NCBI GenBank assembly: GCA_013349405.1
Contig: DUZS01000004.1
Location: 94,726-158,725, forward strand
Reading direction: 5' to 3'
DNA length: 64,000 bases
Source: Desulfuromonadales bacterium
GTDB lineage: Bacteria > Desulfobacterota > Desulfuromonadia > Geobacterales > Pseudopelobacteraceae
The position numbers and the translations under genes are program-made. The notes beneath the pieces are model-generated. The model was given only the letters and a program-made list of their open reading frames with translations, ran no database searches and was not told the DNA's origin. Every line of letters starts with the position of its first letter. Positions within the stretch are counted from its first letter, which is position 1. Below are positions 10,607-45,610 of this stretch, piece after piece.

Positions 10607-10623
10607 CGCAACTTGTGTGCCAG
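10607..10623 (-). promoter_or_regulatory. sigma-54 -24/-12 promoter candidate (csbD-BON-yihY-ndvB)
   Basis: Minus strand reads CTGGCAC-ACAAG-TTGCG, about 75 nt upstream of the csbD ATG. Confidence 0.75.
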
Positions 10624-12151: not shown

Positions 12152-12158
12152 CACCCTT

Positions 12159-12821
12159 ATGCAAAAATTCACAAGGATGGAGATGAGAACTGATATGAAA
12201 AAACACCAACAGCACAAACCGTTCGCAATGATTCGCGAATTTCAGCTCGCCGACTGGTTCACCCTGGCAAACGCCGTCTGCGGAACGGGAGCACTGTTTT
12301 CCATGCTGTCGTACCTGCAGAATACTGACGTCAGACATGTCTATTTTGCCGGCGGACTGGTAGTGACTGCCTTGGTCTTTGATGTTCTGGACGGACGAAT
12401 TGCCCGGTGGCGTCAGAAAAATTCTATTTTGGGGCGTGAGCTCGATTCTCTTGCCGATGTCATCTCATTTGGTGTCGCACCTGCGGTAATTGCCTACGGA
12501 TGCGGGATGCAGGGGTTGTATGACCGTATAGTCCTGACCTGTTTTGTCGCCTGCGGTGTGTCGCGGCTCGCGCGGTATAATGTTACGGCGGATGAACTGT
12601 CTGAAGGCGGCAGTAAGGTGAAATATTTTGAAGGGACACCGATTCCGACATCAGTGCTGCTGGTATTACTGCTCTGTATTGCTGCATCTCAAGGAGCGCT
12701 GCGCGAATCACTCTGGTTCGGGCATATATTGTTCGCAGGGTTCACTCTTCATCCACTTGTGCTGCTGTATGCGCTTTCCGGTTCTCTGATGATCAGCCGT
12801 ATCAGATTCCCAAAGTTCTAA
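12159..12821 (+). CDS. pssA: CDP-diacylglycerol--serine O-phosphatidyltransferase (CDP-alcohol phosphatidyltransferase family)
   Basis: The D-G-x2-A-R-x8-G-x3-D-x3-D motif is read as DGRIARWRQKNSILGRELDSLADVISF. First ATG after the upstream stop. Confidence 0.8.
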   Translation: MQKFTRMEMRTDMKKHQQHKPFAMIREFQLADWFTLANAVCGTGALFSMLSYLQNTDVRHVYFAGGLVVTALVFDVLDGRIARWRQKNSILGRELDSLADVISFGVAPAVIAYGCGMQGLYDRIVLTCFVACGVSRLARYNVTADELSEGGSKVKYFEGTPIPTSVLLVLLLCIAASQGALRESLWFGHILFAGFTLHPLVLLYALSGSLMISRIRFPKF

Positions 12822-12832
12822 ATTGTTTATTG

Positions 12833-12876
12833 CTGCATAAACGGGCTGATGAATATTCATCAGCCCGTTTATGCAG
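12833..12876. terminator. perfect 44-nt palindrome between convergent genes (bidirectional terminator candidate)
   Basis: CTGCATAAACGGGCTGATGAAT|ATTCATCAGCCCGTTTATGCAG. The second half is the exact reverse complement of the first. Confidence 0.6.
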
Positions 12877-12921
12877 CCCTTGTTCAAATTATACTGTTAC
12901 GCTTGTTACGGTGAATCATTT

Positions 12922-13782
12922 TTATTTTTTGTCATGTTCCTTGTCTTTGTCATGTTCTTTATCGCTGTCATGGTCTTTATCGTGGTTGTGCTCTTTGTCA
13001 TGATCGTGGTCGCGGCCGCAATTATTATGGTCTACCGGAGGATCTACCGGCGGCAGTACCGGTCCGGAACCACTGCAGGCTGATACTGCAACACCGGTCA
13101 ACGTCGAGCCGGCTTTTGCCAGATCGCGGCCCATCAGGCTACCTCCGGTGAATGTGCTGGCAGCTCCTGACAGAAGGGTTCCCTGAAAGTTGGAAGTTGT
13201 CATTGTTGCAGCCTCGGCAGCCCACCAATATACGTTGCAGGGATTTCCGCCACCGGACATGACCACCGAGAAGTTTGTTCCGGTCAAAGCACCGGTTCCG
13301 AGTGTTCCGACCTTGAAAATCCATTCCCCGTTTGCAGGTCCGTCAAGCGTTAACTGGCCGGTGAGAGTCGCTGCAGCATCAAAACAATACACGTTCGGCG
13401 CCAGCACCTGGTTGGTGAGATCACCGGACAAGGTTACATTACAGGGCACTTGTGCAAACAGATCGTAGCCGACGAGAAAATCACTGTATGCAGCAATAGC
13501 ACTTGCATCTGCCTGGTGAATCGTCCCGGTAACAGGACTGGTTGTTTGTGTGACGGTGCTGAATGGTAGTCCGGAGCCAACATCACCAGTAACGGTTGAA
13601 TCGGTGAGGGTCACAGCCGTTCCGCCAAGAACGGCAAATGATGCGGAAGTTCCCAATGCCGGTGCGGCTTCAGCGATTCCCGTGTGGAACGGTGCGGCGG
13701 TAAGAAACAGTGACGAAAATGCCAATGCGCCGAGTTTTACTGAGAGTTTACGGAAAATATCCACCTTGATCTGTTTTTTCAT
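12922..13782 (-). CDS. secreted DUF3494 (ice-binding-like beta-helix) protein with a His/Asp/Lys-rich C-terminal tail
   Basis: Signal peptide, then LGTSASFAVLGGTAVTLTDSTVTGDVG ... NVYWWAAEAATMTTSNFQGTLLSG. Tail reads DHDHDKEHNHDKDHDSDKEHDKDKEHDKK. GGAGA sits upstream of ATG 13782. Confidence 0.8.
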   Translation of the reverse strand: MKKQIKVDIFRKLSVKLGALAFSSLFLTAAPFHTGIAEAAPALGTSASFAVLGGTAVTLTDSTVTGDVGSGLPFSTVTQTTSPVTGTIHQADASAIAAYSDFLVGYDLFAQVPCNVTLSGDLTNQVLAPNVYCFDAAATLTGQLTLDGPANGEWIFKVGTLGTGALTGTNFSVVMSGGGNPCNVYWWAAEAATMTTSNFQGTLLSGAASTFTGGSLMGRDLAKAGSTLTGVAVSACSGSGPVLPPVDPPVDHNNCGRDHDHDKEHNHDKDHDSDKEHDKDKEHDKK

Positions 13783-13912
13783 TGTTGTTGTCTCCATTAA
13801 ATTTGGTAATAAATCACTGAACATCCTATCTCCCTTTTTCCTGTCATTTTCTCACACTTCTCCTATGTCACAGTTTGATGAAAGTCCTATGATTGGCCGA
13901 CCTGCCGGGCTC

Positions 13913-14183: not shown

Positions 14184-14200
14184 GGCAACTACCATGCCAG
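14184..14200 (-). promoter_or_regulatory. sigma-54 -24/-12 promoter candidate
   Basis: Minus strand reads CTGGCAT-GGTAG-TTGCC. Confidence 0.7.
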
Positions 14201-14971: not shown

Positions 14972-15961
14972 CTACACGTTATTGCTGTTCTGACGCCTCT
15001 TCACGTATATTACCAAACCAAGAAGACCACTGCCTAAGAGCATCATTGTGCCCGGTTCCGGAACCGGAGCAGAGGTTCCGCCGTCACTTACACTTCCACC
15101 GCCACCGCCGCTGAGACCGTCGCTGCCGAAGTCTTTGCTGTCGAGATCGTTGCTGCTGAAGTCGGAACAGCCATTTCCGGTACCCTGAGCGCTGCTGTTG
15201 GAGATGCGATTGTCTGTCATTGTCACTGCACCGGTGAGGGCAACGGCTCTCCCGCAGAGAATTTGTGCCGTCGGATCGAGGCCGACACTAGCAAGAGCAA
15301 GAATATTGCCCTCAAAAGTAGAACCTGAACCGAGAGTTGCCGAACTACCTACCCGCCAGTACACACCGTTCGTCGAATTTCCGTTGATGACAGACACCCT
15401 TGAAGCGCTTGCGGTTGTCAGGGTACTCCCGATATTGAATACGAAGTCTGCATCGGAAACGTTCTGGAAATCGAGAACCAGATTTCCGTTCAACTGTGCC
15501 GAAGAATTAAAATTATAGACTCCGGCGGTAAGTGTCGAGTGACCCGCAGAGCCGAGGATAAAACCGGTGTAATCTGCTGTCATTGCCATGCCGGCAAGCA
15601 TGTTGTATGCAGTTCTTGCATCGGCCAGAGCTGTTTGTGCAACCCCGTCGTTTGTATGAATTGTGCCGCCGCTCACGGCTCCATCAGGATAAAAGCCGGT
15701 GATCGCACTCCCGGGAGTCACACCCAGATTCCCGAAAATTGTTGTGGTTGCGTTCGGCGCGCTGTGACCGTTGGTAACGGTAGCGGCACCTAAAGCCGCA
15801 AAACTCTGTGCCGAACCGAGTATCGGTGTGGCTTCTGCAATAGTCGGGGAAAAGGCTGTCAACAGCGGCACGACAGCGAAGAGTGACAGGAACGTACATT
15901 TTACTTTCGCTGCAGTGACATAAGTAAATATGCTGCATGGTTTTTTAGATTTTTTTTTCAT
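14972..15961 (-). CDS. DUF3494 (ice-binding-like) protein with a PEP-CTERM sorting signal
   Basis: LGSAQSFAALGAATVTN...GVYWRVGSSATLGSGSTFEGNILAL. The C-terminus is VPEPGTMMLLGSGLLGLVIYVKRRQ (PEP motif, TM, basic residues). GGAGA lies upstream of ATG 15961. Confidence 0.85.
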   Translation of the reverse strand: MKKKSKKPCSIFTYVTAAKVKCTFLSLFAVVPLLTAFSPTIAEATPILGSAQSFAALGAATVTNGHSAPNATTTIFGNLGVTPGSAITGFYPDGAVSGGTIHTNDGVAQTALADARTAYNMLAGMAMTADYTGFILGSAGHSTLTAGVYNFNSSAQLNGNLVLDFQNVSDADFVFNIGSTLTTASASRVSVINGNSTNGVYWRVGSSATLGSGSTFEGNILALASVGLDPTAQILCGRAVALTGAVTMTDNRISNSSAQGTGNGCSDFSSNDLDSKDFGSDGLSGGGGGSVSDGGTSAPVPEPGTMMLLGSGLLGLVIYVKRRQNSNNV

Positions 15962-16150
15962 TTTGATCTCCATTTTTTTGTGTGTCTGATTGAACGCTGA
16001 TTTTCCGGATCGGGCTGTGATCGTGTTCGCTGATGAAATATTTCAGTAGACAGAACTGAATACAAATACTCCTGACTTACAGGTTCTCCTTTCTGGGTGA
16101 ATGGATTTTGTTGCGATGTTGCATCTGGTGCGGTGCATTCCTGCAGAGGT

Positions 16151-16212: not shown

Positions 16213-16229
16213 ATCAACAAGCGTGCCAG
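16213..16229 (-). promoter_or_regulatory. sigma-54 -24/-12 promoter candidate (PEP-CTERM DUF3494 gene)
   Basis: Minus strand reads CTGGCAC-GCTTG-TTGAT (the -12 box is GA rather than GC). 24/25 identical to 24895-24911 and its flank. Confidence 0.6.
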
Positions 16230-20507: not shown

Positions 20508-23123
20508 ATGAAAATTCAAACACTCTCCCATGATGAAGTATTCACAAGTCTGCTGAGTTCCCCCCGGGGACTCACTACGGAAGAGGCGACGCACAGACGC
20601 GGCGAGTATGGATCCAACGAGATCCGCGAGTCACGGGGCCGCCCCATGATTCTGCGCCTGGCGTCCCAATTTACCCACTTTCTGGCCCTGCTGCTCTGGT
20701 TCGCCGCCGCCCTCTGTTTCCTCTCCGAATATCTGCACCCCGGTGAAGGACTGCTGCGTCTCGGTTGGGCAATCCTGGCCGTTATCTTCATAAACGCCAC
20801 CTTCACGTTCATCCAGGAGTACCGCACCGAAAAGGCTATCGAGGAGCTCCGCAAGATGCTCCCCTTCAGAGTGGCCGTCATCAGGAACGGGGTCGAAGTT
20901 GAGCTTGATGCCGCTGATATTGTACCGGGAGATCTGGTGCTGCTGAAAGAAGGGGACAAAGTACCGGCCGATGCGCGCGTCATACTGACCAATCGACTGA
21001 CGGTCAATAACGCGCCTCTGACCGGCGAATCCGACTCCCGTATGCTCACTGACGCCCCCTGCGAAACGGAACTGCTGGACAGCTCGAACCTGGTGTTTGC
21101 CGGCACTCTCGTCGTAAGCGGGAGCGGACAGGCTGTTGTCTATGCCAGCGGCATGGCTACGGAGTTCGGTAAGATCGCCCGGATAACCGGCACGGTGGAG
21201 CAGGAGGTCAGTCCGCTTCATCTGGAAATCACCCGGGTCAGCCGGATTGTTGCCATCATAGCCGTGGCGTGCGGCGCCGGCTTTTTTCTGGTCGGTGTTC
21301 TGGTGGGGCGCGGTTTTTGGGATAATTTTCTGTTTGCCATCGGTATTATCATCGCTACCGTGCCGGAAGGGCTGTTGCCGACCGTGACCCTGTCACTGGC
21401 TATGGGGAGCAAGCGCATGGCCCGCCGCAATGCCCTCGTGAAAAACCTCAACGCCGTGCAGGCTCTCGGTTCGGTTGACCTGATCTGTACCGACAAGACC
21501 GGTACGCTTACGCAGAACCTGATGACGGTGAAAACGTTCTGGAGCCCCGCTGATAAAGGCACCATGGCATATACGGTCGCCCAGCTCTGCAGCAATGTCA
21601 CCGTGACGCCGGAGGGCGTCAAGGGTGATCCGACCGAGACGGCGCTCTACAATTATGCGGTCATGCAGGGAGTCGTGACTGGTGAACGGCTGGGTGAAAA
21701 CCCCTTTGATGCCGACCGGAAACGGATGGCCACCCTGCACCGCATCGACGGTAAGCTTTTTGTCCTGGTCAAAGGGGCCGGTGAAAGCGTCATTCCGCTC
21801 TGCACAGCACCGGACAAGCCCGATTCAAAGGACTCTACGACCGACAGCAGCAGCGCTGGACTCCTGGCGAGATTGCAGGCAATGGCCTCTGAGGGTCTTC
21901 GTGTGATCGCACTGGCCTATCGGGAACTCGACTCGGCTCCGAGCGGAGATATCCCTGAAGAGGGGCTGGTTTTTGCCGGATTCATGGGACTGCTCGACCC
22001 ACCCCGTCCCGAAGTGCCGCAGGCCCTCAAGGATTGTCACAGCGCCGGTATCAGGGTGATCATGATTACCGGTGATGCCGGACCCACAGCAGCAGCCATC
22101 GCCAGGGATATCGGCCTGATAACCGGAGATCCGGTGGTCATTGAAGGGCGTGCCTGCGTCGCTATGCCGGACGAACAGTTGCGGGAAGAACTGAAAAAAG
22201 AGAACCTGATCTTCGCCCGCATGTCGCCCCAGAACAAGATGCGGGTTGTCACTCTGCTGATCGAAGAGGGGCACCGGGTAGCGGTGACCGGAGATGGCGT
22301 CAATGATGCGCCGGCCCTGAAAAAGGCGCATGTCGGTATTGCGATGGGGCTGACCGGAACCAGTGTTGCCCGCGAGGCCGCCGATATCGTACTGCTGGAT
22401 GACAACTTCGCCTCTATTGTCAATGCCATTGAGGAAGGGCGCGCCGTCTTCGAGAACATCCGGAACTTCATAACCTACATCTTCGCTTCCAATATACCGG
22501 AACTGATCCCCTACATCGGCTACATCCTGTTCGGTATCCCGCTGCCGCTGACCATCATGCAGATTCTGGCGGTGGACCTCGGGACCGACATGCTGCCGGC
22601 TCTGGCCCTTGGCGCGGAGAAACCATCGCCGGACATCATGCAGCGGCCACCCCGGCCAAAAGACGAGCATCTGCTCACCAGAGGGGTTCTCTTGAGGGCC
22701 TATCTCTATCTCGGGTTATGGGAGGCATGTGCCGGCATGAGCGCCTATTTCTTTGTCCTGCATCAGGGCGGCTGGAGTTGGTCTCAGACGCTGGCGCCTG
22801 CCTCAACGCTTTACCTGCAGGCGACCACCGCCTGTCTGGCCGGCATAATCGCAACGCAGATTGCCAACGTCTTTGCCTGCCGCTCACCGAATGTTTCCAT
22901 TCTGACTCTGGGGATTTTTTCAAACCGGCTGGTACTGGCAGGCATCGCTACCGAAGTGCTTCTGGCGGCGCTGATCATCTACACGCCGCTCGGCAACTCA
23001 CTGTTCGTCTGCGCTCCGATCGGTATCAACGTCTGGCTGCTGCTGATCCCGTTTGCCCTGCTGCTGCTGGTATTTGATGAAACACGGAAGTATTTTGTCA
23101 GGCGTGTGGTTATGCGGGCGTAG
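20508..23123 (+). CDS. cation-transporting P-type ATPase (P2-type, Ca2+/Mg2+-like)
   Basis: DKTGTLT, TGDGVNDAPALKKA, PEGLLPTVT, and about 10 TM segments. Confidence 0.9.
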   Translation: MKIQTLSHDEVFTSLLSSPRGLTTEEATHRRGEYGSNEIRESRGRPMILRLASQFTHFLALLLWFAAALCFLSEYLHPGEGLLRLGWAILAVIFINATFTFIQEYRTEKAIEELRKMLPFRVAVIRNGVEVELDAADIVPGDLVLLKEGDKVPADARVILTNRLTVNNAPLTGESDSRMLTDAPCETELLDSSNLVFAGTLVVSGSGQAVVYASGMATEFGKIARITGTVEQEVSPLHLEITRVSRIVAIIAVACGAGFFLVGVLVGRGFWDNFLFAIGIIIATVPEGLLPTVTLSLAMGSKRMARRNALVKNLNAVQALGSVDLICTDKTGTLTQNLMTVKTFWSPADKGTMAYTVAQLCSNVTVTPEGVKGDPTETALYNYAVMQGVVTGERLGENPFDADRKRMATLHRIDGKLFVLVKGAGESVIPLCTAPDKPDSKDSTTDSSSAGLLARLQAMASEGLRVIALAYRELDSAPSGDIPEEGLVFAGFMGLLDPPRPEVPQALKDCHSAGIRVIMITGDAGPTAAAIARDIGLITGDPVVIEGRACVAMPDEQLREELKKENLIFARMSPQNKMRVVTLLIEEGHRVAVTGDGVNDAPALKKAHVGIAMGLTGTSVAREAADIVLLDDNFASIVNAIEEGRAVFENIRNFITYIFASNIPELIPYIGYILFGIPLPLTIMQILAVDLGTDMLPALALGAEKPSPDIMQRPPRPKDEHLLTRGVLLRAYLYLGLWEACAGMSAYFFVLHQGGWSWSQTLAPASTLYLQATTACLAGIIATQIANVFACRSPNVSILTLGIFSNRLVLAGIATEVLLAALIIYTPLGNSLFVCAPIGINVWLLLIPFALLLLVFDETRKYFVRRVVMRA

Positions 23124-23148
23124 AGATGGATATTTAAGGAGGTGGTGC

Positions 23149-24021
23149 ATGAAGCTGGTCGATTCGCTCGCCAAGTTGCCTCATTCCCTTGTTACGGCGC
23201 TGGCGTTGTTTCTCTGTATTGCTGTGGGAGTGGTTGACGGGGTAGTCGGACACGTCTACTCGCTGGTGCCGTTCTATCTTGTTCCTGTCGTTCTGGCAGC
23301 CTGGTGCGTCGGGAGGAAAACCGGCTATCTGCTCTCCTTTATCTGCTCTCTGGGATGGTTATCGGCTGAATTAGCAGCCGGGCTGTTCTTGAAAGCCGAT
23401 TTTGCCATGTACTGGAATGACGCAATGAAGCTTTTGCTCTTTGTCCTGACGACCACGGTTATCTCCGCGCTTAAAGAGGCACTTGAGAGGGAAAATGTAT
23501 TAGCCCGGACAGATCATCTTACCGGTATTCCCAACAGACGCAGTTATTATGAGTCAGTCTCCGGAGAGATTCGGCGCAACCTCCGCTATTATGATCCCTT
23601 CACAATCGTATATCTCGACATTGATAACTTCAAAAATGTCAATGATACCAGGGGGCATGCCGGGGGAGATACGCTGTTAAAGCTCGTAGCTTCAGTCCTT
23701 GCAAAATCAGTCCGCGAAATCGATACGGTCGCTCGTCTGGGGGGTGATGAGTTTGCACTGCTACTCCCTGAAACCGATGGTGATGCTGCTGATATAGTGG
23801 CAACCAAGGTACGGCAGCGCCTTAAAATGAACGTGGAAAACCACTGGCCGGTGACCTTCAGCATGGGTCTGGTAACCTATCATAAAGCCCCGGCTACCAT
23901 CGATAAAGTAATCGGATATGCCGACCGCCTCATGTTTAAAGCGAAAGAGGGGGGTAAAGATGCCATCTGCTGCGAAGTGGTAGGGGAAATGGATAACGAC
24001 AAAGCCCCACAAGATTTCTGA
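23149..24021 (+). CDS. membrane-bound diguanylate cyclase (GGDEF, with RxxD I-site)
   Basis: AAGGAGG lies upstream of ATG 23149. N-terminal TM segments. FKNVNDTRGHAGGD, REID-x5-GGDEF. Confidence 0.85.
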   Translation: MKLVDSLAKLPHSLVTALALFLCIAVGVVDGVVGHVYSLVPFYLVPVVLAAWCVGRKTGYLLSFICSLGWLSAELAAGLFLKADFAMYWNDAMKLLLFVLTTTVISALKEALERENVLARTDHLTGIPNRRSYYESVSGEIRRNLRYYDPFTIVYLDIDNFKNVNDTRGHAGGDTLLKLVASVLAKSVREIDTVARLGGDEFALLLPETDGDAADIVATKVRQRLKMNVENHWPVTFSMGLVTYHKAPATIDKVIGYADRLMFKAKEGGKDAICCEVVGEMDNDKAPQDF

Positions 24022-26999: not shown

Positions 27000-27587
27000 A
27001 TGAAATCGGCAGAAACTGCAAAAAAATTCCCGGTTGTGTGTGTCGGCGGATCGGCCGGCGGTCTCGATGCCTATATCCGGTTACTGCAACATCTGCCGGC
27101 TGATATGGGGGTTGCCATCGTCATCGTCAATCATCTGAGAACCGTGGCGACCATGCTTCACAAAATTCTTCCCCGATATACGGAGATGCCGGTTGAACTG
27201 ATTACGGACTCCCTGCTCATTGAGCCCAACCATGTATTCATTATTCCGGAAAAGCGGGATTTGCATGTACGTGAGGGTGAATTTCGTCTGGAGCCGATAT
27301 CGAAGCCGAGAGGGTGGCCGGATGTGATTACCGTATTCATGCGCTCATTGACCGAAAACTGGGATGGCACGCTGATTGCGGTAATAGTTTCCGGATTTGA
27401 TGGTGATGGTGCAAATGCTCTGTGCGGTATTAAAGAAGTTGGCGGCATAACAATCGCGCAAAGGCCGGACACCGCCGCTCAGCCGGATATGCCTGAAAGC
27501 GCAATTGATAGCGGCTGTATCGATTTCATTCTCTCACCTAAGGACATTGCCAAAAAAATAGTCGAGATTGTCAACTTAGTTTACTGA
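27000..27587 (+). CDS. stand-alone CheB-type methylesterase domain protein (no receiver domain)
   Basis: VVCVGGSAGGLDAYIRLLQHLP, IVIVNHL and GFDGDGANAL match the Ser/His/Asp context of CheB. Paralogous to the N-terminus of 37552-40251. Confidence 0.75.
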   Translation: MKSAETAKKFPVVCVGGSAGGLDAYIRLLQHLPADMGVAIVIVNHLRTVATMLHKILPRYTEMPVELITDSLLIEPNHVFIIPEKRDLHVREGEFRLEPISKPRGWPDVITVFMRSLTENWDGTLIAVIVSGFDGDGANALCGIKEVGGITIAQRPDTAAQPDMPESAIDSGCIDFILSPKDIAKKIVEIVNLVY

Positions 27588-29938: not shown

Positions 29939-30104
29939 ACCGCAAACAGGGTACATAATGGCGTAACATACTGACTATAAAGGTTAAAGTATGATTCATA
30001 GAATCGGGCTGCGAAAAAACTGCCAAAAATAACTGTTATAGATGACATAGTCGTCAAATGTGGTGGAGTTTGTACCGGAGTTGCCCCTGAGCAGAAAACT
30101 GCGC

Positions 30105-30156
30105 AAAAAAAGACGGAGACAGACAGGATTTCAACCCTGCGTGCCTCCGTCTTTTT
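30105..30156 (-). terminator. intrinsic terminator of the DUF3494 gene 30206-31087
   Basis: Minus-strand RNA reads AAAAAGACGGAG...CUCCGUCUUUUUUU, a long interrupted hairpin followed by a U-tract. Confidence 0.7.
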
Positions 30157-30205
30157 GGCCTGCTGTGTTCCGTGACTGAAACCCGGAACACCTGTGTTAC
30201 GTGAC

Positions 30206-31087
30206 TTATGGTGCCGGTACGGTAATGGTGGTGTTTACCATGGTAACTGAAGCGTGCAGCGCAAGTGCTCTGCCCTGCAGTGCTGTTAATGTGGTGTTGC
30301 CTGCAGTTGAGAAAGATGCACCGGAAAAGGCGATAATAGTTCCTACCATGGTGCCGCCACCGGCAGCGTTGATTGTTGCGGCACTACCGACCTGCCAAAA
30401 AACGTTTTTGGCCTGAGCACCGTTGATCAGGTGGACACTCTGGGGGAATGCAGCACCGGGGCCACCCACGGTAAGTGTTGAAGCCATCTGGAACACGAAT
30501 GTTGCATTCGCGTCGCCACGGCCGTCAAGAGTGAGGTCTCCACCGGTTATGGCAAATGAGCCTGGTGCGGATTTGTAGACGCCTGGAGCAAGGTAACGTC
30601 CGCCGAGTTCACCGGCACCGCCGCCGAGCGTTGAAACATCAATCCCGCCCGGAAGGGCTGCGGGGGAGAGCTTGTCGAAAGCTTTTTGTGCTGCGAGTGC
30701 GACTGCGGCAGCTTTAACACCCGGGACAGAGCCACGGGGAGCGGTTGCGGTATAGACTGTTCCGGTTACGTTTCCTTTATTCATGGTCGTTTCCGTATAG
30801 ACCGCTTTACTGTCGTGGAAACCGGTAACCATCGTTGATGCGCCTGTGGTGCCGATGTCACCTTTCACTACGGTATAAATCCCTTGATTGGTCATCCCGG
30901 CGCCGCCGCCAAAAACACCGAACGTCGATGCTGCGCCAAGATCAACGATTTTGGAAACAGCCGGGGGAGGCGGGTTATGGCTATCATGGTGTTTATCAGA
31001 GCCGGCAAAAACCATTGAACTACTTGCCAAAACAGTTAACGCCAACATTCCTGCAAGATACGTTTTTGGTGCGATACAGTTTTTCAT
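30206..31087 (-). CDS. secreted DUF3494 (ice-binding-like) protein
   Basis: Signal peptide. LGAASTFGVFGGGAGMTNQG...KNVFWQVGSAATINAAGGGTMVGTIIAFSGASF. AAAGGGGA lies upstream of ATG 31087. Confidence 0.85.
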   Translation of the reverse strand: MKNCIAPKTYLAGMLALTVLASSSMVFAGSDKHHDSHNPPPPAVSKIVDLGAASTFGVFGGGAGMTNQGIYTVVKGDIGTTGASTMVTGFHDSKAVYTETTMNKGNVTGTVYTATAPRGSVPGVKAAAVALAAQKAFDKLSPAALPGGIDVSTLGGGAGELGGRYLAPGVYKSAPGSFAITGGDLTLDGRGDANATFVFQMASTLTVGGPGAAFPQSVHLINGAQAKNVFWQVGSAATINAAGGGTMVGTIIAFSGASFSTAGNTTLTALQGRALALHASVTMVNTTITVPAP

Positions 31088-31240
31088 AACATCCCCTTTT
31101 ATCAATAAGAACAGTAGCTGTTCTCTGTCGGTGCGATCAATTCTCTGGCCCTTCAGAGTGTGAATCGCGACGTGGTGTATTTATTAGTATGTTTCAATGG
31201 TTGCAGGAATAAGGCGAAAAAGGAACCTGTTCACTGAAAA

Positions 31241-31330
31241 CGTACTGATACGTGGCAACCTGGCTGTCTCTGAGAGATCCTGTAGGCTTTCCGTCCCATC
31301 CTCGCGGATGGTTTAGTAGTATCGTGTACC
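31241..31330 (-). ncRNA. GEMM-I (c-di-GMP-I class) riboswitch aptamer with the A20, cGAMP-type (GEMM-Ib) signature
   Basis: Minus-strand RNA reads GGUACACGAUACUACUAAACCAUCCGCGAGGAUGGGACGGAAAGCCUACAGGAUCUCUCAGAGACAGCCAGGUUGCCACGUAUCAGUACG. It has the conserved AAACC-stem-GNRA(GCGA)-stem-GGGACG.AAAGCC core, a swapped G21-C46 pair (C...G), and a closing stem GUAC/GAUAC with GUAUC/GUAC. Confidence 0.75.
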
Positions 31331-31475
31331 GCCGGATTTATGCCTGTTCCCGGATAAACCCCCGGTCAGTATAAATGTTCGCCTGTTACGGCGCTTAAAC
31401 CCGAATTGGGATGATCTCTCCTCCTCTTAATAAGATTTACCTGCTAACCGGTATTTCTGCACTGATACTGTAGGG

Positions 31476-31492
31476 AGCAACGAACGTGCCAG
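31476..31492 (-). promoter_or_regulatory. sigma-54 -24/-12 promoter candidate (riboswitch leader plus DUF3494 gene)
   Basis: Minus strand reads CTGGCAC-GTTCG-TTGCT. The leader to ATG 31087 is about 375 nt. Confidence 0.75.
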
Positions 31493-31570
31493 TAAATAAA
31501 AACGTATTTTTATGAGTAACTAGCCGTAATAATACATTAAATTGTTTGTTGTCGCACCTCGTGCTGAAAA

Positions 31571-31619
31571 TCTGTCACGCGTATCTGTTGTAATTAACAG
31601 AAGTGTAATATGCGGCGGG
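31571..31619. promoter_or_regulatory. upstream box (candidate enhancer/UAS)
   Basis: CTGTCACGCGTATCTGTTGTAATTAACAGAAGTGTAATATGCGGCGG, about 80-130 bp upstream of the -24 box. Confidence 0.4.
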
Positions 31620-31726
31620 CACTCATGGGTGAGTGATATCATTAATGCCGTCAGCGGTTTTCCTCAAGAAATTCATGTGCGGTTATAATCTTGAATGATG
31701 CTGTCATGAGAGGCCCCTTCATCACG

Positions 31727-32314
31727 TTACCACGATGTATGCTCAGACTTTTTCGTACCTTTTGATCTGCTGGAATTTTGTAACTGCGGCATGGCTTCCA
31801 TGACAGCGGTGCGATACATGGCTTCCAGATCATGGCGGGCATTTTCAATGATTTTTCCCGGAATTCCGGGCAGATAGCTACCGGTATAGAGGATATTCGC
31901 CGTGGTGAATTTTTCGAGCGCGGCGGAATGATCTGCAAGTGATGACAGTTGGAGTCCTTCAAGAACCGTGCTGTAAAACTCGCGCGCATCGACATGGATA
32001 CGCTTCAGGTCAATGCGTATCCCTTCAGGACCAGCAACAAGCGGATTAAAGCCCAACTCTTTCACAAGGAACACGCCGAGCGGTCGAATGACCTTCTCAT
32101 CCAGTCGATGCCTGCTGGGACGAGTTTCCGGCATATCCCACATGGAGCGACAGATACGATCCCAGGTGAAGTATAGATCGAGAGGTGAGAGCAGCGAGCA
32201 GAAAAACACTTTAAGCGTTTCATCCGGCCAGGAAGCAGCCACAGGTTTTCCCTCGTTGCTAATGCTGAAGCGTCCGAGCGTCTGGATTTCCAGAGGTGTG
32301 TCAGGTTTATCCAT
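31727..32314 (-). CDS. SARP/BTAD-like transcriptional regulator (winged-helix plus bacterial transcriptional activation domain)
   Basis: LEIQTLGRFSISNEGKPV...W...KVFFCSLL, then IRIDLKRIHVDAREF...LEKFTTANILYTGSYLPG. AGGGAG lies upstream of ATG 32314. The track start at 32422 lies upstream of the promoter. Confidence 0.6.
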   Translation of the reverse strand: MDKPDTPLEIQTLGRFSISNEGKPVAASWPDETLKVFFCSLLSPLDLYFTWDRICRSMWDMPETRPSRHRLDEKVIRPLGVFLVKELGFNPLVAGPEGIRIDLKRIHVDAREFYSTVLEGLQLSSLADHSAALEKFTTANILYTGSYLPGIPGKIIENARHDLEAMYRTAVMEAMPQLQNSSRSKGTKKSEHTSW

Positions 32315-32386
32315 CAGAGGCTCCCTGAATGATAATATGAGTTGGAGTAACAGGCAGAGAATATGGCCCTGCAAGAGGAGAAGTAA

Positions 32387-32403
32387 GGCAACTACTGTGC
32401 CAG
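32387..32403 (-). promoter_or_regulatory. sigma-54 -24/-12 promoter candidate (SARP-like regulator)
   Basis: Minus strand reads CTGGCAC-AGTAG-TTGCC, about 70 nt upstream of ATG 32314. Confidence 0.75.
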
Positions 32404-32530
32404 TTGGATATTGCTGCGGCAACTAGCTGTTTTTACGATGATTGATTAAAACGGGAGTGCTGCTGTGAAGGGTAACTGTCAGTGGAATCCGTCAGGGGTA
32501 ACATTACTGTTAAATGTGGAGGATGGTTGG

Positions 32531-32632
32531 GAAGGGGGAATATACCCCCCTCCCAGCCTCCCCCCGCTGGGGGGAGGAGCTAATTAAGTTCCCTCACCCA
32601 GCGGGGGAGGGGTAGGGAGGGGGAGGCGGGAA
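32531..32632. repeat. G-run/C-run palindromic intergenic element (REP-like), copy 1
   Basis: CCTCCCCCCGCTGGGGGGAGG and CCCTCACCCAGCGGGGGAGGGGTAGGGAGGGGGAGG. Same family flavour as 46264-46365 and 52460-52502. Confidence 0.6.
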
Positions 32633-37551: not shown

Positions 37552-40251
37552 TCACGCATTCGCTTCAAGCATCGCCTGCAGCCGTACGTTCTCCGCCCGC
37601 AGTTCCGCTTCCAGAGTCTTGGTTGCGGTGATGTTGGCAAAGGTAATTACCACACCGGAAATGACGTCATCCATGGTGCGGTATGGCATGATGCGTACCG
37701 AAAACCAGCGATTGTCGGTGGTGGTGATCTGTTTTTCCGAAAAGATCAGCGTACGGTGTACCTGACGCGAGTCCTCGATAATGTCGGGATAGTTGAGGTC
37801 GTTGACGATTTCGGAAAGAGGTCGGCCGATATCAACGGTACGCAGCTTGAATATGGTATCAGTCCCGCTGGTGAAGCGCCGGATATGGAGATCATTGTCC
37901 AGAAATACGGTCACGATTTCGGTACTGTTGAGCAGGTTGCGCATATCGTTGTTGACCCGCGCAAGCTCGTCCATTTTCGACTGCTGCTCGGCGTTCACCG
38001 TCTGTAGCTCTTCATTCAGTGACTGCATCTCCTCCCTCGAAGTGGTCAGCTCTTCGTTGGTGGATTGCAGCTCTTCGTTGGTTGACTGTAGTTCCTCATT
38101 GGTAGATTTAAGCTCCTCCTGGGAGGATTGCATCTCTTCGCGGTTGGCCTGGAGCGTTTCCCGGAACTGACGTTGTTCCTGTTCCAGTTCGAGCACCCGG
38201 GCGCTGCTGATTGAAGGGGGGCCGTCATGATTCGACGGAGCATGAACCTGGATGGGCGATGACACGTCGCGGAAGATGATCATGACCATCCCGCGCAGCG
38301 CTTCCGGTTCTTCGACGGACTGAACGGTGATGTCAACCGATTGTGCTGCATCACCTTTGCCCACCGTGAGACCCTTGGCCATGACGGTCTCTTTGAGTCG
38401 GACCGCTCTCTGGAACGCACTGCCAAGATCAGAACGAAGCCCTTCACGAGCCATTGCAAAAATATTCCAGTTGGCTTTTCCGGCGGCAGGTTCCAGGTAT
38501 TTGCCGGTTTTGCCACTGATATAGAGAATATCACCGCTTTCATTGGTCAGTACGGCGGGTGGTGAAAACTGCTGCAGAAGCAGATTGTCGGCCAGTGACT
38601 GCAGGTTGACAGCCGGTTTTACCATCGGCAACTCCTTTGAGGTTCCGTGAAAAGCGGGAACAAACGAGGCGGGAAATGCAAGCGGCTCTAACTGTATGAC
38701 GGACTCCCGCCGCTGGAAGAAGCGCGACTTGACGTTCAATGGTGCAAAAAGGTGCGTATAGGTGCTGATGGTTTCGGCACTCCCCAGAAACAGGATGCCG
38801 CCCGGTGCAAGGCTGTAATGGAAGAGCGGCATGAGCTTTTTCTGCAGTTCCGGTGTCAGATAGATGAGCAGGTTACGGCAGATGAGGATATTCAGCCGTG
38901 TAAATGGGGGATCCATGATGATGTTCTGTGTGGCAAAGGTCACGACATCGCGGATCTCCTTGCTGACCCGGTAGCCGTTTTCCTCCTTGATAAAGAACCG
39001 TTTCAGCTGTTCGTCGGCAACATTCTCGCTGATGGTGAGCGGATAGAACCCATGACGGGCCTTGTCAATCGAATCGTTATCCAGATCGGTGGCAAAAATC
39101 TGCAGCGAAAAATTTTCAGACGGTCTGACCTGTTCCAGCGCCATCTTGAAGGCGATGGCCAGCGAGTAGGGTTCCTCTCCGCTTGAACAGCCGGCCGACC
39201 ATGCCCGCAGAATCCCGCCTGACGGGTGCGCGGCCAACAGCGCCGGTATGCCTTCCTTGATCAGATATTCCCATGACTCGGGGTCGCGAAAAAAGCTCGT
39301 CACACCAATCAACAGCTCTTTGAAGAGAATTTCCACCTCCTGGGGGTTCTCCCGCAGGTAGCGGACATACGCCCCGATCCGGTCAATCTGGTGGACACTC
39401 ATGCGCCGCTCAATGCGGCGCTGCACAGTGTTTTTCTTGTACAATGAGAAGTCACTGCCGGTCTTGGCCCGCAGGAGGATGAGGACCTTCTCCAGGGCGC
39501 TTTGATCTTTCTCCTCCAGCGGTGGTTCACTCCTGGTAATGACCAGGGTGTGGTGGAGATAGGCGATGATCTTGCCCGGCAGCTCCTCGGCCGGGGCGAC
39601 AATATCTGCTACCCCGGCATTAATGGCGCTTTTCGGCATGCTGTCGAATTTTGCTGAAGCCGGCTCCTGTGCCAGGGTCACGCCACCATGCTCTTTAATC
39701 GCCGTGAGCCCCAGCGTGCCGTCCGAACCCATACCGGAGAGGACAACTCCAATGGCACCATCCGTGCGATCATCGGCTAAAGAGTGGAAGAAAAAATCGA
39801 TCGGAAGCCGGAGACCACGCGCTGCCGCCGGTTCAAACAGGTGCAGCACGCCGTGCAGGAGGGACATGTCCCTGTTGGGCGGGATGACATACACGCAGTC
39901 CGGTTGAACCTTCATCTGATCTATGACCTGAAAAACCTTCATCCCGGTAACCCGCTGGAGCAGCTCAGGCATGATCCCCTTGTGGGTTGGATCCAGGTGC
40001 TGAATGATGACAAAAGCGCAGCCGCAATTTTCCGTCACATGCCGCAGAAACTGTTCCAGCGCCTCAAGTCCACCGGCAGAGGCACCGATGCCGACGATGG
40101 GGAAGGGGGCTTCCGGAATGCTTTCACAGGAAGCCGGTTCGTGGGCATTTCCACGTCTGGTCATTTTAGTTCGCACTTTCATACGGTTACCATAACAGTA
40201 TTCCGGCGAATGCACTAATTTATTGTGTGGAGCCCCTCCCGCGCGGTTCAT
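37552..40251 (-). CDS. CheB methylesterase/CheR methyltransferase fusion with a coiled coil and C-terminal PAS
   Basis: VGIGASAGGLEALEQFL, VIIQHLDP, the CheR SAM region ILRAWSAGCSSGEEPYSLA, STNEELQ x3, then PAS. Confidence 0.85.
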   Translation of the reverse strand: MNRAGGAPHNKLVHSPEYCYGNRMKVRTKMTRRGNAHEPASCESIPEAPFPIVGIGASAGGLEALEQFLRHVTENCGCAFVIIQHLDPTHKGIMPELLQRVTGMKVFQVIDQMKVQPDCVYVIPPNRDMSLLHGVLHLFEPAAARGLRLPIDFFFHSLADDRTDGAIGVVLSGMGSDGTLGLTAIKEHGGVTLAQEPASAKFDSMPKSAINAGVADIVAPAEELPGKIIAYLHHTLVITRSEPPLEEKDQSALEKVLILLRAKTGSDFSLYKKNTVQRRIERRMSVHQIDRIGAYVRYLRENPQEVEILFKELLIGVTSFFRDPESWEYLIKEGIPALLAAHPSGGILRAWSAGCSSGEEPYSLAIAFKMALEQVRPSENFSLQIFATDLDNDSIDKARHGFYPLTISENVADEQLKRFFIKEENGYRVSKEIRDVVTFATQNIIMDPPFTRLNILICRNLLIYLTPELQKKLMPLFHYSLAPGGILFLGSAETISTYTHLFAPLNVKSRFFQRRESVIQLEPLAFPASFVPAFHGTSKELPMVKPAVNLQSLADNLLLQQFSPPAVLTNESGDILYISGKTGKYLEPAAGKANWNIFAMAREGLRSDLGSAFQRAVRLKETVMAKGLTVGKGDAAQSVDITVQSVEEPEALRGMVMIIFRDVSSPIQVHAPSNHDGPPSISSARVLELEQEQRQFRETLQANREEMQSSQEELKSTNEELQSTNEELQSTNEELTTSREEMQSLNEELQTVNAEQQSKMDELARVNNDMRNLLNSTEIVTVFLDNDLHIRRFTSGTDTIFKLRTVDIGRPLSEIVNDLNYPDIIEDSRQVHRTLIFSEKQITTTDNRWFSVRIMPYRTMDDVISGVVITFANITATKTLEAELRAENVRLQAMLEANA

Positions 40252-40684: not shown

Positions 40685-42751
40685 ATGAATAAAAATAAAC
40701 TCGTAACAAAGATGCGTTATCTGATGTTGCTCACCGTCGCGTTTGTGGCCGGATGTGCAAGTAATGGCCAGGAAATTCCGCTGATTCCTGCTGACACTAT
40801 CGCACCCACGGTGAGCTTTACGGCGCCGGATAGCGCTCAAACCGCCGTTCCTGTCAACCGGAAAGTTTCTGTTGCTTTTAGTGAGGCAATGAACCAGTCA
40901 ACACTCACTGCGGCAACGTTCAAAGTTTCCGGTCCGGGCCTGACGCCCGTGCCAGGTGCAGTCACCGGAGTTGGTCCGACAGCAATCTTTACGCCGACAA
41001 CAGCATTCTCTAACAGTACTCTCTATACCGCCACGATTACCGTTGGTGCCAAAGATCCTGCCGGTAATGCGCTGGCTGCAAACTATTCATGGACCTTCAC
41101 CACAAGCGCAATCGCTGACGTTATCAAACCGACGGTCAGTTTCACCGCGCCGATTACCGGCCAAACGGCTGTTCCCACAAACCGGATAATCCACGTAGCG
41201 TTCAGCGAGGTAATGGATCCTTTTACAATTATCGGAGCAAACGTTACGTTGACAGCCCCGGGTGCTGTTCCTGTTGCCGGAACTGTTGAGGGTATCGGAA
41301 CATCTGCCACCTTCACGCCGACCAGCGCACTGGCCAACAACACGTTGTATACCGCTACGGTCAAAACCGGTGTTAAAGACCTGGCAGGTAATACCATGGC
41401 AAGTAACTATGTCTTTACCTTCACGACAGGTCTGGCCGCAGACACAACACGTCCGACGGTAAATGTCACATCACCGACCGACACCGCAATAGCCGTGCCA
41501 CTCAACCGGAAAGTAAGCGTCGGCTTCAGTGAGGTGATGGATCCATTAACGATCACCACGACTTCATTTACGTTAACTGGCCCGGGTGTAACTCCCGTAG
41601 TGGGAACAGTTGCTCCAAGTGGTACGTCAGCTGTCTTTACGCCATCCAGTAATCTTGCCTACAGCACTCTCTATACCGGTACGATTACCACTGCAGCCAA
41701 AGACCTGGCCGGCAATGCCCTGGCAAGTAACTTTGTCTTTACCTTCACAACCGGTACACTTGCAGATAGTACAGCTCCGATCGTGGTGACGGTGAACCCC
41801 GCTGATCTCGCAACTGATGTGGCGATAAACAGCGCCGTTCATGCAACATTCAACAAGGATATGGATCCTCTGACCTTCAGCAGCACAACCTTTACGCTGC
41901 AGACATCCGGCCCGCCATTAGGTGTTCCCGCTGTAACAGGAGCGGTTACCTATAACACGCTGACCAAAATAGCCACTTTCACACCGGCAGCGGATCTCGC
42001 CGTCGACACGAAATATACTGCAACCGTTACAACCGGAGTCAAGGATCTGGCCGGTAATGCCCTGACAAGTGACAAGGTCTGGAGCTTTACAACAGCCGCC
42101 GCAATTGTCCCGCCGCCTGTTAACAATACTCACCTTGGTTCGGCAGCAGCCAACGGGATCATGGCAACCTCCTCAATTTCCAGTACCGGCCCTTCTGTCG
42201 TTAATGGTGATGTTGCCATGGAACCGGGCACTGCCAACGGTTTGCTGCCATCACAGGTAAACGGTACAATCAATCTGAATAATGCAATATCACACCAGGC
42301 CTATGCCGACCTGCTGATCGGGTATAATTACTACAAAGCCCTGCCATCGGGAACGATCATCACAGCCGGTGCAGATCTGGGTGCGTTATACCCGTTAGGT
42401 ATTCCACCGGGTACCTATACATCGGGAAGTACGATGTCAATCGCTACTCCTCTCAAGCTTGATGCGGGCGGTAACCCGAATGCCGTGTGGGTATTTCAGA
42501 TCGGCTCCTCACTGACAACGACCACGCCGTTAGGTAATGTTCAACTCCTCAACGGTGCAAACCCCAACAATGTGTTTTGGGTTCCTACTGCGTCAGCGAC
42601 TATCGGAGTCGGTACCACCTTCTACGGTACTGTTATTGCCGGTGTAACTATCACCGGTCAGACCGGTGCCACCATTAACGGTCGATTGTTGGCCGGGGCA
42701 ATCGGTGCCGGCGTAATTACGCTGGATAGCAATGTTGTTACCGTTCCGTAA
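40685..42751 (+). CDS. lipoprotein with four SbsA/Big_5-type Ig-like repeats and a C-terminal DUF3494 (ice-binding-like) domain
   Basis: Lipobox FVAGC. Four approx. 100-aa repeats (D..PTV.FT.P...V..N..I.V.FSE.MD..T......L...G..V.G.V......A.FTP...L...T.YT.T......DLAGNAL). The C-terminus is LGSAAANGIMA...NVFWVPTASATIGVGTTFYGTVIAG. Confidence 0.85.
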   Translation: MNKNKLVTKMRYLMLLTVAFVAGCASNGQEIPLIPADTIAPTVSFTAPDSAQTAVPVNRKVSVAFSEAMNQSTLTAATFKVSGPGLTPVPGAVTGVGPTAIFTPTTAFSNSTLYTATITVGAKDPAGNALAANYSWTFTTSAIADVIKPTVSFTAPITGQTAVPTNRIIHVAFSEVMDPFTIIGANVTLTAPGAVPVAGTVEGIGTSATFTPTSALANNTLYTATVKTGVKDLAGNTMASNYVFTFTTGLAADTTRPTVNVTSPTDTAIAVPLNRKVSVGFSEVMDPLTITTTSFTLTGPGVTPVVGTVAPSGTSAVFTPSSNLAYSTLYTGTITTAAKDLAGNALASNFVFTFTTGTLADSTAPIVVTVNPADLATDVAINSAVHATFNKDMDPLTFSSTTFTLQTSGPPLGVPAVTGAVTYNTLTKIATFTPAADLAVDTKYTATVTTGVKDLAGNALTSDKVWSFTTAAAIVPPPVNNTHLGSAAANGIMATSSISSTGPSVVNGDVAMEPGTANGLLPSQVNGTINLNNAISHQAYADLLIGYNYYKALPSGTIITAGADLGALYPLGIPPGTYTSGSTMSIATPLKLDAGGNPNAVWVFQIGSSLTTTTPLGNVQLLNGANPNNVFWVPTASATIGVGTTFYGTVIAGVTITGQTGATINGRLLAGAIGAGVITLDSNVVTVP

Positions 42752-44797: not shown

Positions 44798-45610
44798 ATG
44801 AAAACGAATGTACGTAACAACAGGTGGTTCACAGCAGTATTTCTGGCGGCCGTATCAATGGCCGTAGCACTGACAGGATGCGGAGGCGGCGACGGAGGAA
44901 ATAATACACCAGTGGCGGGACCCAACACCGGGCCGTCAGCAGTTCAACTTGGAACAGCCGGAAATTATGCGATTTTTGCAGAGACAGGGGTGGTCACTAA
45001 TCCGAATCCCTCAGTAATTACCGGAAATATCGGCACCGGACCAGGGGTCACCTCTTCTGCCATTACCGGATTTGCTCTTACTTTGCCGGCAGCTGGAGCC
45101 TTTTCGACTTCAGCCCAGGTAACCGGAAACATCTATGCCTTCGATTATGCAGCGCCGACCCCGGTTAACGTGACCACCACTTCAGCCGACATGGGTACAG
45201 CGTACACTGATGCTGCCGGACGTCCTGCAGGAGTCGGTCCCTTCCTGAACGTCGGGGCAGGAACCGTCAGTGGTAAAACACTTGCTCCGGGTACCTACAC
45301 ATGGACAAGTGCAGTTACGATACCGACAGATCTCACACTTAACGGAAGCTCGAATGATGTCTGGATTTTCCAGATTGCCGGAACTCTCGACATGGCCGCA
45401 GCCAAAAAAGTCATCCTCAGCGGTGGTGCTCTGGCCAAAAACGTATTCTGGCAGATTGCCGGAGCTGTATCCATCGGTGCAGACACGGAGTTCAAGGGTA
45501 ATGTTATGGGTAAAACTGCAATCACCCTGGGTAACAAAGCGAAAATCGACGGCAGACTGCTGGCGCAAACGGCGGTTAATCTTAATGGCACAACGGTGAC
45601 AAAACCGTAA
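44798..45610 (+). CDS. DUF3494 (ice-binding-like) lipoprotein
   Basis: Lipobox ALTGC. LGTAGNYAIFAETGVVTN...KNVFWQIAGAVSIGADTEFKGNVMGKTAITL. Confidence 0.85.
   Translation: MKTNVRNNRWFTAVFLAAVSMAVALTGCGGGDGGNNTPVAGPNTGPSAVQLGTAGNYAIFAETGVVTNPNPSVITGNIGTGPGVTSSAITGFALTLPAAGAFSTSAQVTGNIYAFDYAAPTPVNVTTTSADMGTAYTDAAGRPAGVGPFLNVGAGTVSGKTLAPGTYTWTSAVTIPTDLTLNGSSNDVWIFQIAGTLDMAAAKKVILSGGALAKNVFWQIAGAVSIGADTEFKGNVMGKTAITLGNKAKIDGRLLAQTAVNLNGTTVTKP

Follow-up and report, generated by a model that had tools for sequence, protein, structure and literature searches.

The window considered here, a stretch of 64,000 nucleotides (64 kb) of contig DUZS01000004.1 from a Desulfuromonadales bacterium (GCA_013349405.1), carries on its minus strand a GEMM-I (c-di-GMP-I class) riboswitch aptamer in the 5′ leader of a gene for a DUF3494 protein, downstream of a sigma-54 promoter. 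The element can be assigned with high confidence to the Geobacter sub-family of these aptamers (GEMM-Ib, cGAMP-type; cGAMP stands for 3′,3′-cyclic GMP-AMP), which has A at the position equivalent to G20 of the Vc2 aptamer of V. cholerae (hereafter A20). Relatives of this aptamer are followed by a strong intrinsic terminator, of which a decayed 3′ arm and a U-run are found in the window. We lean towards the view that the window copy is an inherited GEMM-Ib ON-switch whose expression platform has eroded and which is now leaky or constitutive, with the sigma-54 promoter and its enhancer-binding protein (EBP) as the main control of the DUF3494 gene.

The aptamer, its sequence family and its ligand

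A search of the whole 64-kb window against the whole of Rfam (cmscan), run at gathering thresholds, returned RF01051 (c-di-GMP-I) as its sole match, at 31251–31327 on the minus strand, full-length (model positions 1–87) and at 39.7 bits against a gathering threshold (GA) of 35 (E = 2.8e-4). The class had been called in a first-pass annotation made from the letters of the sequence, which proposed this same Rfam check, and the call is upheld. The score lies at the low end of, but within, the range of the sequence family described below (38.7–50.2 bits; 45.1–48.0 in orthologues). Membership of c-di-GMP-I-GGC (RF03167) was rejected after a permissive scan (37.1 bits against its GA of 59), and no second or tandem GEMM-I element was found at E ≤ 1 in the window, including upstream of the other four DUF3494 paralogues. 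Two features define the element:

31247–31330, minus strand: GEMM-I aptamer, from the RF01051 match, the family alignment, counts of pairs in helix P1 and about 88% identity to the Geobacter aptamer Gm0970
31251–31253, minus strand: altered junction, ACG, in the aptamer, from the family alignment

In the cmscan alignment, model position 11 (Vc2 G20) is A at 31317, and the model pair 12–37 (Vc2 G21–C46) is C–G, with an adjoining U–G pair. The first hairpin, CUAAACC-AUCC-GCGA-GGAU-GGGACGG (31291–31316), has a GNRA loop, GCGA, and the second, UCUC-UCA-GAGA, can be read in the sequence at 31257–31287; thus, the adenine, the swapped pair and the second hairpin of the first-pass annotation are all present. 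The equivalents of two ligand-contacting nucleotides are aligned to the model consensus, namely A 31290, directly after the C–G/U–G pairs, and C 31255, within a UUGCC motif; they correspond in Vc2 numbering to the intercalating A47 and the Watson–Crick-pairing C92 (PMC6140456). Helix P1 is in the register of the family, with GGUA (31327–31330) facing UAUC (31247–31250).

Relatives were collected by scanning metagenomes for the 22-nt core CTAAACCATNCGCGAGGATGGG, which gave at least 120 stretches and, together with genome loci, 124 unique instances. Of these 124, 121 have A directly before CUAAACC and 2 have G, a count that is valid for the sub-family only, since the core pattern fixes the first hairpin, and that refers, like the other counts of relatives below, to the matches listed. 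The identity of the window aptamer is about 88% with Gm0970, whose sequence was taken from a machine-read preprint supplement with character-recognition noise (bioRxiv 10.64898/2026.01.30.702909), and 87% with the aptamer of an orthologous locus (L004), so that Gm0970 is equally close; the first-pass annotation had also noted a resemblance to a Geobacter cGAMP aptamer. A full-text literature search with the aptamer sequence itself gave no relevant match. The genes 3′ of 70 sampled relatives encode proteins with fn3 and Ig-like domains, c-type cytochromes, DUF4382 proteins, outer-membrane beta-barrels and PAS-GGDEF-EAL proteins, in keeping with the surface proteins and cytochromes of the cGAMP regulon published for Geobacter (PMC6456294). 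DUF3494 was found in none of the 95 downstream open reading frames (ORFs) of randomly sampled relatives among the listed matches. Riboswitches of the cGAMP type have been described in the Desulfuromonadaceae/Geobacteraceae clade (PMC6456294; PMC8835794). Some of the collected leaders (L084, 6433–7031; L153, 803–1433; L081) contain three to four near-identical A20 aptamers in tandem, more than the pairs described for G. sulfurreducens.

At five columns with a conservation of at least 90%, the window copy departs from its family, which places it in the top 6% of relatives for such departures. Two of these lie in the second hairpin (GGG to GGA and GCCGGG to GCCAGG). The other three are consecutive and follow GCC, where G-A-A, conserved at 98–100% in the family, is A-C-G in the window, so that the sequence reads GCC-ACG-UAUC; this junction is proximal to P1 (the structural roles of junction nucleotides are taken here from secondary sources and from inference). 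Such departures, together with a score only 4.7 bits above GA, are what could be said for a chance resemblance or a dead fragment that is no riboswitch at all. This is very unlikely in view of the E value, obtained with a full-length match in a search of the whole window against the whole of Rfam, the fact that Gm0970 and more than 100 independent relatives are nearly identical to the element, the occurrence at the same position in orthologous loci, and the location on the correct strand within a 5′-UTR.

The ligand is a separate question. What marks out the cGAMP class is an A at the G20 position (PMC6140456), and from this base the first-pass annotation had read a cGAMP ligand. However, A20 alone does not prove selectivity for cGAMP, because the Vc2 G20A variant binds c-di-GMP as well as cGAMP, as does Cbe 1-2, a natural A20 riboswitch, and because the selectivity of Gs1761 varies with the construct from about 3-fold to about 1200-fold, with a suggested influence of the composition of P1 (PMC6140456). 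The presence of A20 and the relatives, including Gm0970, whose aptamer is about 1600-fold selective for cGAMP (PMC8835794), support that proposal; A20 by itself does not settle the ligand. By homology to Gm0970, cGAMP is the most probable ligand, and dual or weakened binding is possible.

Another reading is that the aptamer is functional and that its physiological ligand is c-di-GMP, or c-di-GMP and cGAMP together, rather than cGAMP selectively. The dual binding of Vc2 G20A and Cbe 1-2, the approximately 3-fold discrimination of Gs1761 in one study and the alteration of the P1-proximal junction in the window copy are consistent with this, as is a variant with G at position 20 that precedes another DUF3494 gene (L020, described below). 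The one GGDEF enzyme encoded in the window points the same way. The sole GGDEF protein of the window (23053–24021, plus strand), whose gene adjoins those of a P-type ATPase and a universal stress protein, is membrane-anchored, reads GHAGGD...GGDEF and has the canonical Asp of diguanylate cyclases; no Hypr GGDEF protein, with Ser, is encoded in the 64-kb window, and this protein is the only candidate there for a cyclic-dinucleotide enzyme. The Ser/Asp residue on which selectivity depends is presumably located at its GHxxGD motif. In Hypr enzymes, a change from Ser to Asp flips product selectivity (bioRxiv 10.64898/2026.01.30.702909). On the contrary, the prevalence of A20 among the listed relatives, the closeness to the highly selective Gm0970 and the response of riboswitches of this family to deletion of the cGAMP synthase GacA in G. 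sulfurreducens (PMC6456294) argue for cGAMP, and a c-di-GMP or dual ligand is accordingly regarded as an unlikely, although serious, alternative.

Erosion of the terminator in the window copy

The family is built in a uniform way. In nearly all listed relatives, AGCCGGGUYGCCGAAAUAUC is followed by a loop, GAUAUU, GGCRACCCGG and a U-run, and the U-run begins about 41 nt after AGCC in 98 of the 110 complete relatives listed. The segment from AGCC to the U-run folds with a predicted median of −22.2 kcal/mol in those 98 (10th to 90th percentile, −28.3 to −16.4), and the pairing is supported by covariation in L153 and L184, where an aptamer strand reading GCCAGG rather than GCCGGG is paired by a distal CCUGG. 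P1 of the family has 4 bp, GRUA/UAYC, with four standard pairs in 75 of 87 relatives listed and a second pair that is A–U, G–U or G–C among those 87. For L004, the ligand-free ground state is predicted to be the terminator (−43.1 kcal/mol, compared with −20.7 for the aptamer alone). This design is the ON-switch mechanism described for Geobacter, in which deletion of gacA raises termination at such leaders and weakening of the terminator bypasses the need for cGAMP (PMC6456294). In the ancestral arrangement, the 3′ half of the aptamer (CCGGGUYGCCGAAAUAUC) would pair, without ligand, with the complement downstream to form a strong intrinsic terminator with its U-run, whereas ligand would hold the aptamer and its 4-bp P1 together, prevent the terminator from forming and allow RNA polymerase to read through.

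For the corresponding segment of the window copy, a fold of only −5.8 kcal/mol is predicted. A U-run, UUUUU (31217–31221), is present at the homologous place, 44 nt after AGCC, and no terminator-like site was found by a terminator scan on the aptamer strand between 30000 and 32500. Other partners by which GGUUCC-UUUUU could form a terminator stem were considered and rejected, because only a hairpin of 3–4 bp with a loop of 2–4 nt is possible. The features of this region are as follows:

31217–31236, minus strand: remnant of the family terminator, consisting of the decayed 3′ arm CAGUGAACAGGUUCC (31222–31236) and the U-run, homologous to the 3′ arm and U-run of L202 and L004
31241–31251, minus strand: 3′ strand, GUAUCAGUAC(G), of an extended 9-bp stem, which pairs with GUACACGAUAC (31319–31329) in the minimum-energy fold
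31155–31232, minus strand: C-rich, G-poor tract with 23 C and 9 G in 78 nt (C/G 2.56), from a sliding-window count

The minimum-energy fold of the window leader is the aptamer closed by the 9-bp stem, without a competing structure. This extended stem, GUAC-AC-GAUAC/GUAUC-A-GUAC, is the closing stem of the first-pass annotation; it exists in the sequence and in the minimum-energy fold, but it is not the P1 of the family. It occurs in the window copy only, being absent from the orthologues examined, and it pairs the nucleotides numbered A15–C18 in Vc2, which are conserved and unpaired in the family. A local hairpin, ACGUA-UCAG-UACGU (31240–31253), shares the GUAUCAGUAC(G) half with the extended stem.

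The window copy has kept the core of the aptamer, while mismatches have accumulated in the 3′ arm of its terminator and its junction has changed from GAA to ACG; the aptamer fold with the extended closing stem is the predicted ground state and is unchallenged. Since the terminator arm has decayed and the aptamer fold meets no competitor, a leaky or constitutively ON state is the most likely one for this copy, and the sigma-54 promoter with its EBP would then be what chiefly determines how strongly the DUF3494 gene is expressed. The earlier proposal that the gene needs both the EBP and the nucleotide signal finds no support in the window copy, given the strength of its terminator segment relative to the family median and the negative result of the terminator scan.

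Several points weigh against this preference. The core of the aptamer is well conserved, with two core substitutions at conserved columns and a score above the Rfam threshold, which would be unexpected if it had long been without function. The weak, interrupted hairpin with UUUUU at the homologous place may still terminate partially in vivo. An inner hairpin has been kept through differing sequences (GAAAU/AUUUC in L004, ACGUA/UACGU in the window), hinting at a constraint on the platform. In addition, the folding energies used throughout are thermodynamic predictions and not co-transcriptional measurements.

These points bear on the possibility of a working gate with two inputs, in which the EBP and sigma-54 would start transcription and cGAMP would then be needed for read-through to the DUF3494 gene by way of a non-canonical platform. 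Three such platforms can be envisaged: the residual weak hairpin with its U-run, a switch of register between the family P1 and the 9-bp stem, which abuts GUUUUC, and Rho acting on the C-rich tract. The conserved core with its above-threshold score, the conservation of the module, intact, in orthologues, the family P1 (GGUA/UAUC) in register, the mutually exclusive extended stem followed by G-UUUU, the C-rich and G-poor tract directly downstream and the inner hairpin maintained by differing sequences are all compatible with a gate of this kind. However, the canonical terminator has gone, and the scan of 30000–32500 found no terminator-like site on the strand. Both the extended stem and the C-rich tract are peculiar to the window copy and not conserved in orthologues. 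The riboswitch has also been deleted in close relatives, which suggests relaxed selection in the clade. On this evidence, a two-input gate is doubtful. A stronger version, for which the chances appear slimmer still, is that the copy has been rewired and has not decayed, with the ligand choosing between the binding-competent family P1 and the 9-bp stem, which takes up the conserved nucleotides of the junction and abuts GUUUUC, or controlling access of Rho to 31155–31232. If this were true, the rewired copy would be a non-canonical cGAMP gate in series with sigma-54 and the EBP, tying cGAMP to an envelope regulon rich in DUF3494 proteins. The C-rich tract is compatible with a Rho loading site, which is only a lead, drawn from base composition, and the tract is not conserved in orthologues.

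Orthologous loci, promoter and neighbouring genes

The preferred reading of an eroded and leaky ON-switch gains support from a comparison of the leaders of the closest DUF3494 homologues, in which Rfam scans served to confirm where the aptamer is missing. The closest relatives of the DUF3494 protein come from metagenome-assembled genomes of Desulfuromonadaceae and Geobacteraceae, and an identical protein is encoded on JBAXLQ010000003.1 of GCA_037134735.1. The module of sigma-54 promoter, leader, A20 aptamer, terminator and DUF3494 gene occurs in four complete orthologous loci and in one locus cut by the end of its contig, and five other orthologues have no aptamer. In the following list, the percentages are protein identities to the window:

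L004, 79%: A20 aptamer present, terminator −27.1 kcal/mol
L209, 79%: A20 aptamer present, terminator −27.1 kcal/mol
L208, 79%: A20 aptamer present, terminator −19.5 kcal/mol
L202/L203, 86%: A20 aptamer present, terminator −12.4 kcal/mol with an A-A mismatch in the stem
Window, 100%: A20 aptamer present, terminator −5.8 kcal/mol
L207, 80%: contig cut, 3′ arm of the terminator visible
L201, 87%: aptamer absent, no terminator
L002, 85%: aptamer absent, no terminator
L206, 84%: aptamer absent, no terminator
L204, 83%: aptamer absent, no terminator
L210, 80%: aptamer absent, no terminator

L004, L209 and L208 still have the intrinsic-terminator platform that overlaps the 3′ half of the aptamer. The nearest relatives of the window are loci with a weakened terminator or without a riboswitch, and the simplest reading is that an ancestral working module is being lost in its clade. 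L002 has the same gene order (EBP, a 197-aa ORF, DUF3494, STAS, PAS-kinase) and a short leader of about 35 nt. Possible deletion scars were seen in three of the loci without an aptamer: GGTAC-CAGTAC at 3955–3975 of L002 resembles the flanks of the aptamer, although with 11 nt it is too short to call, and GGTGGTACAACGA, about 90 nt upstream of the start codon in L204 and L206, likewise resembles these flanks. A further locus, L020, carries at 7221–7296 an aptamer of the same family with G at the G20 position, which lies between an exact sigma-54 element on its 5′ side and a DUF3494 gene on its 3′ side; together with the A20 copies, it offers a natural A/G pair for the study of ligand specificity in an equal genetic context.

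Transcription and its control involve the following features:

31477–31491, minus strand: −24/−12 element of the sigma-54 promoter, TGGCACgttcgTTGC, an exact match to TGGCAC-N5-TTGC
31566–31600, minus strand: putative activator-like repeats CTGTTAATTACAACAG ... GTGACAG, recognized by sequence, about 75–125 nt upstream of the −24 element and kept in L002
32665–34215, minus strand: NtrC-type EBP, REC-AAA+-HTH_8 (Pfam Sigma54_activat, E = 2.2e-70; Response_reg; HTH_8), in an order that is syntenic in L002
34212–37640, minus strand: hybrid histidine kinase, CHASE3-PAS-HisKA-HATPase-REC (Pfam), directly upstream of the EBP gene

The sigma-54 promoter predicted in the first-pass annotation is credible, being an exact consensus that is kept in orthologous loci, has upstream elements in common with over 10 further sigma-54 sites of the window and adjoins an EBP gene. 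Exact or one-mismatch copies stand at the same place in L002, L004, L201, L202, L206, L208, L209 and L210, and L204, with two mismatches, is the sole exception among the orthologous leaders that reach far enough. No sigma-70-like promoter was found in 30000–32500, and hence none lies closer to the aptamer. The window contains 12 exact copies of TGGCAC-N5-TTGC and 20 with at most one mismatch, where 6.0 ± 2.3 would be expected. Among the other relatives of the aptamer listed, an upstream sigma-54-like site is rare (4 of 103, against 1 of 105 in an opposite-strand control), whereas every DUF3494 locus that carries the aptamer, L020 included, has one. For this reason, the arrangement of sigma-54 promoter and aptamer in series is, as judged from sequence, real and conserved for the DUF3494 gene family.

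At most of the other sigma-54 sites in the window, TRACAG/TGACGG repeats lie about 75–125 nt upstream of −24, and an IHF (integration host factor)-like motif, WATCAR-N4-TTR, lies about 30–45 nt upstream of −24 at most sites, with a weaker, imperfect match at the riboswitch promoter. The EBP gene lies 1.2 kb upstream, and its adjacency makes the encoded protein a candidate activator of the riboswitch promoter; by the same token, the hybrid histidine kinase is a candidate sensor for the EBP. Many of the sigma-54 sites in the window are arranged in divergent pairs about 240 bp apart, namely 10608–10622(−)/10850–10864(+), 14185(−)/14446(+), 16214(−)/16454(+), 24896(−)/25137(+) and 61275(−)/61517(+), and further sites are located at 29923(−), 32388(−), 45849(+) and 50782(+); upstream of most there is an IHF-like AATCAG-N4-TTG motif together with TGACAG/TGACGG inverted repeats. 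The sites give the impression of a single EBP regulon that comprises envelope genes (BON, OmpA, PAP2, AI-2E transporter, Nramp and DUF3494). Upstream of the genes for the hybrid kinase and the EBP there is one for a CheB-CheR-PAS fusion (37552–40251, minus strand), and a stand-alone CheB-methylesterase-like ORF (27000–27587, plus strand) lies nearby, a chemotaxis-type input to a sigma-54 regulon that would be unusual.

The remaining features lie between the promoter and the end of the regulated gene:

31331–31465, minus strand: 5′ leader upstream of the aptamer, about 135 nt counted from the predicted start, similar in length in orthologues and poorly conserved in sequence
31133–31168, minus strand: hairpin GCGAU...CUCUG-AAGGGC-CAGAG...AUCGC after the old terminator, also in L202, L207 and L209
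31108–31124, minus strand: hairpin AGAACAG-CUA-CUGUUCU, read from the sequence, which ends 16 nt upstream of the Shine-Dalgarno-like GGGGA
31085–31099, minus strand: ribosome-binding region AAAGGGGAUGUU AUG, from the sequence
30206–31087, minus strand: DUF3494/Ice_binding-like gene, 293 aa (PF11999, E = 7.6e-48), with a signal-peptide-like N-terminal segment

The regulated gene is the DUF3494 gene, as had been proposed, and the distances given for the leader are right: the aptamer lies about 135 nt downstream of the predicted start, and the ATG at 31087 follows it after about 154 nt. The 135-nt leader contains no conserved element or small ORF; it is poorly conserved, and its purine-rich AAGAGGAGG is followed by no usable start codon. 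An 8-nt complementarity between GAGAGAUC in the leader and GAUCUCUC on the aptamer strand was spotted by eye, with two comparable sequences only. The hairpin at 31133–31168 has no match in Rfam, and three of its pairs are changed on both sides among L202, L207 and L209, i.e., the changes are compensatory; leader sequence similar to the region of this hairpin also occurs after the terminators of riboswitches of unrelated genes (L090, L149, L169 and L192). The hairpin at 31108–31124 is not conserved in sequence in orthologues.

Five Ice_binding/DUF3494 paralogues are encoded in the 64 kb, at 12922–13824(−), 14972–15973(−), 30206–31087(−), 40685–42751(+) and 44798–45610(+); one ends in a PEP-CTERM tail, one contains four Big_5 domains and a single one is equipped with a riboswitch. 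At least two of the remaining paralogues are preceded by sigma-54-like sites (14185–14199 and 16214–16228, both on the minus strand). A long, near-perfect C-rich/G-rich inverted repeat, CCCCTCCC...GGGAGGGG (32543–32624, both strands), separates the EBP gene from the sigma-54 promoter that comes next; it matches several microRNA-precursor models only as a long hairpin and is probably a terminator or a repeat element. A long hairpin at 12805–12896 (plus strand), with a sub-threshold match to a microRNA precursor, coincides with the 3′ end of a CDP-alcohol phosphatidyltransferase gene (12129–12821).

Comparison with known riboswitch systems

The loci described here form a natural decay series, from intact through weakened to dead terminator and then to deletion of the aptamer, which could serve the study of how control by a riboswitch is lost and could show the weight of the P1-proximal sequence in selectivity for cGAMP over c-di-GMP. 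They also call for caution in annotation, because a riboswitch match above threshold is not equivalent to a gene that is still under riboswitch control. The understanding of the riboswitch class as such is unchanged by the window copy. DUF3494 proteins, which are secreted, ice-binding-like beta-solenoids, would be an added target class of cyclic-dinucleotide riboswitches of the Geobacter type, and the combination of a sigma-54 promoter with an A20 GEMM-I element is a conserved one for this gene family.

Among the known systems, c-di-GMP-I-GGC (RF03167) belongs to the same clan as RF01051, and the window element lies far below its threshold. With Vc2, the archetype of RF01051, the element shares the three-helix junction, the GNRA hairpin, the equivalents of A47 and C92 and the core AAACC...GGGAC..AAAGCC; by contrast, it has A in place of G20, C–G in place of G21–C46 and a shorter second hairpin, and Vc2 itself is highly selective for c-di-GMP. 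Riboswitches that act by Rho-dependent termination exist in the mgtA and ribB leaders. With these, the window leader has in common a structured aptamer, a C-rich, G-poor untranslated tract and a considerable length, a likeness that is one of base composition alone, and its C-rich tract is not conserved in orthologues.

The closest counterparts are the 3′,3′-cGAMP riboswitches of Geobacter (GEMM-Ib), including Gm0970 and Gs1761/pgcA (Kellenberger 2015; Nelson 2015; both as cited in PMC6456294, PMC8835794 and PMC6140456). The window copy differs from them in the predicted stability of its terminator stem (−5.8 against about −22 kcal/mol), in the change of GCC-GAA to GCC-ACG, in the extra 9-bp alternative closing stem, in its DUF3494 target, which is represented in 0 of 95 sampled targets, and in its sigma-54 promoter, which has a counterpart in 4 of 103 members of the family. 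On the other hand, it agrees with them in the RF01051 fold, A20, the swapped C–G pair, the GCGA tetraloop, the approximately 88% identity to Gm0970, a host among the Desulfuromonadales and a location in the 5′-UTR of a gene for a secreted or surface protein, and its orthologues have retained the terminator-based ON design.

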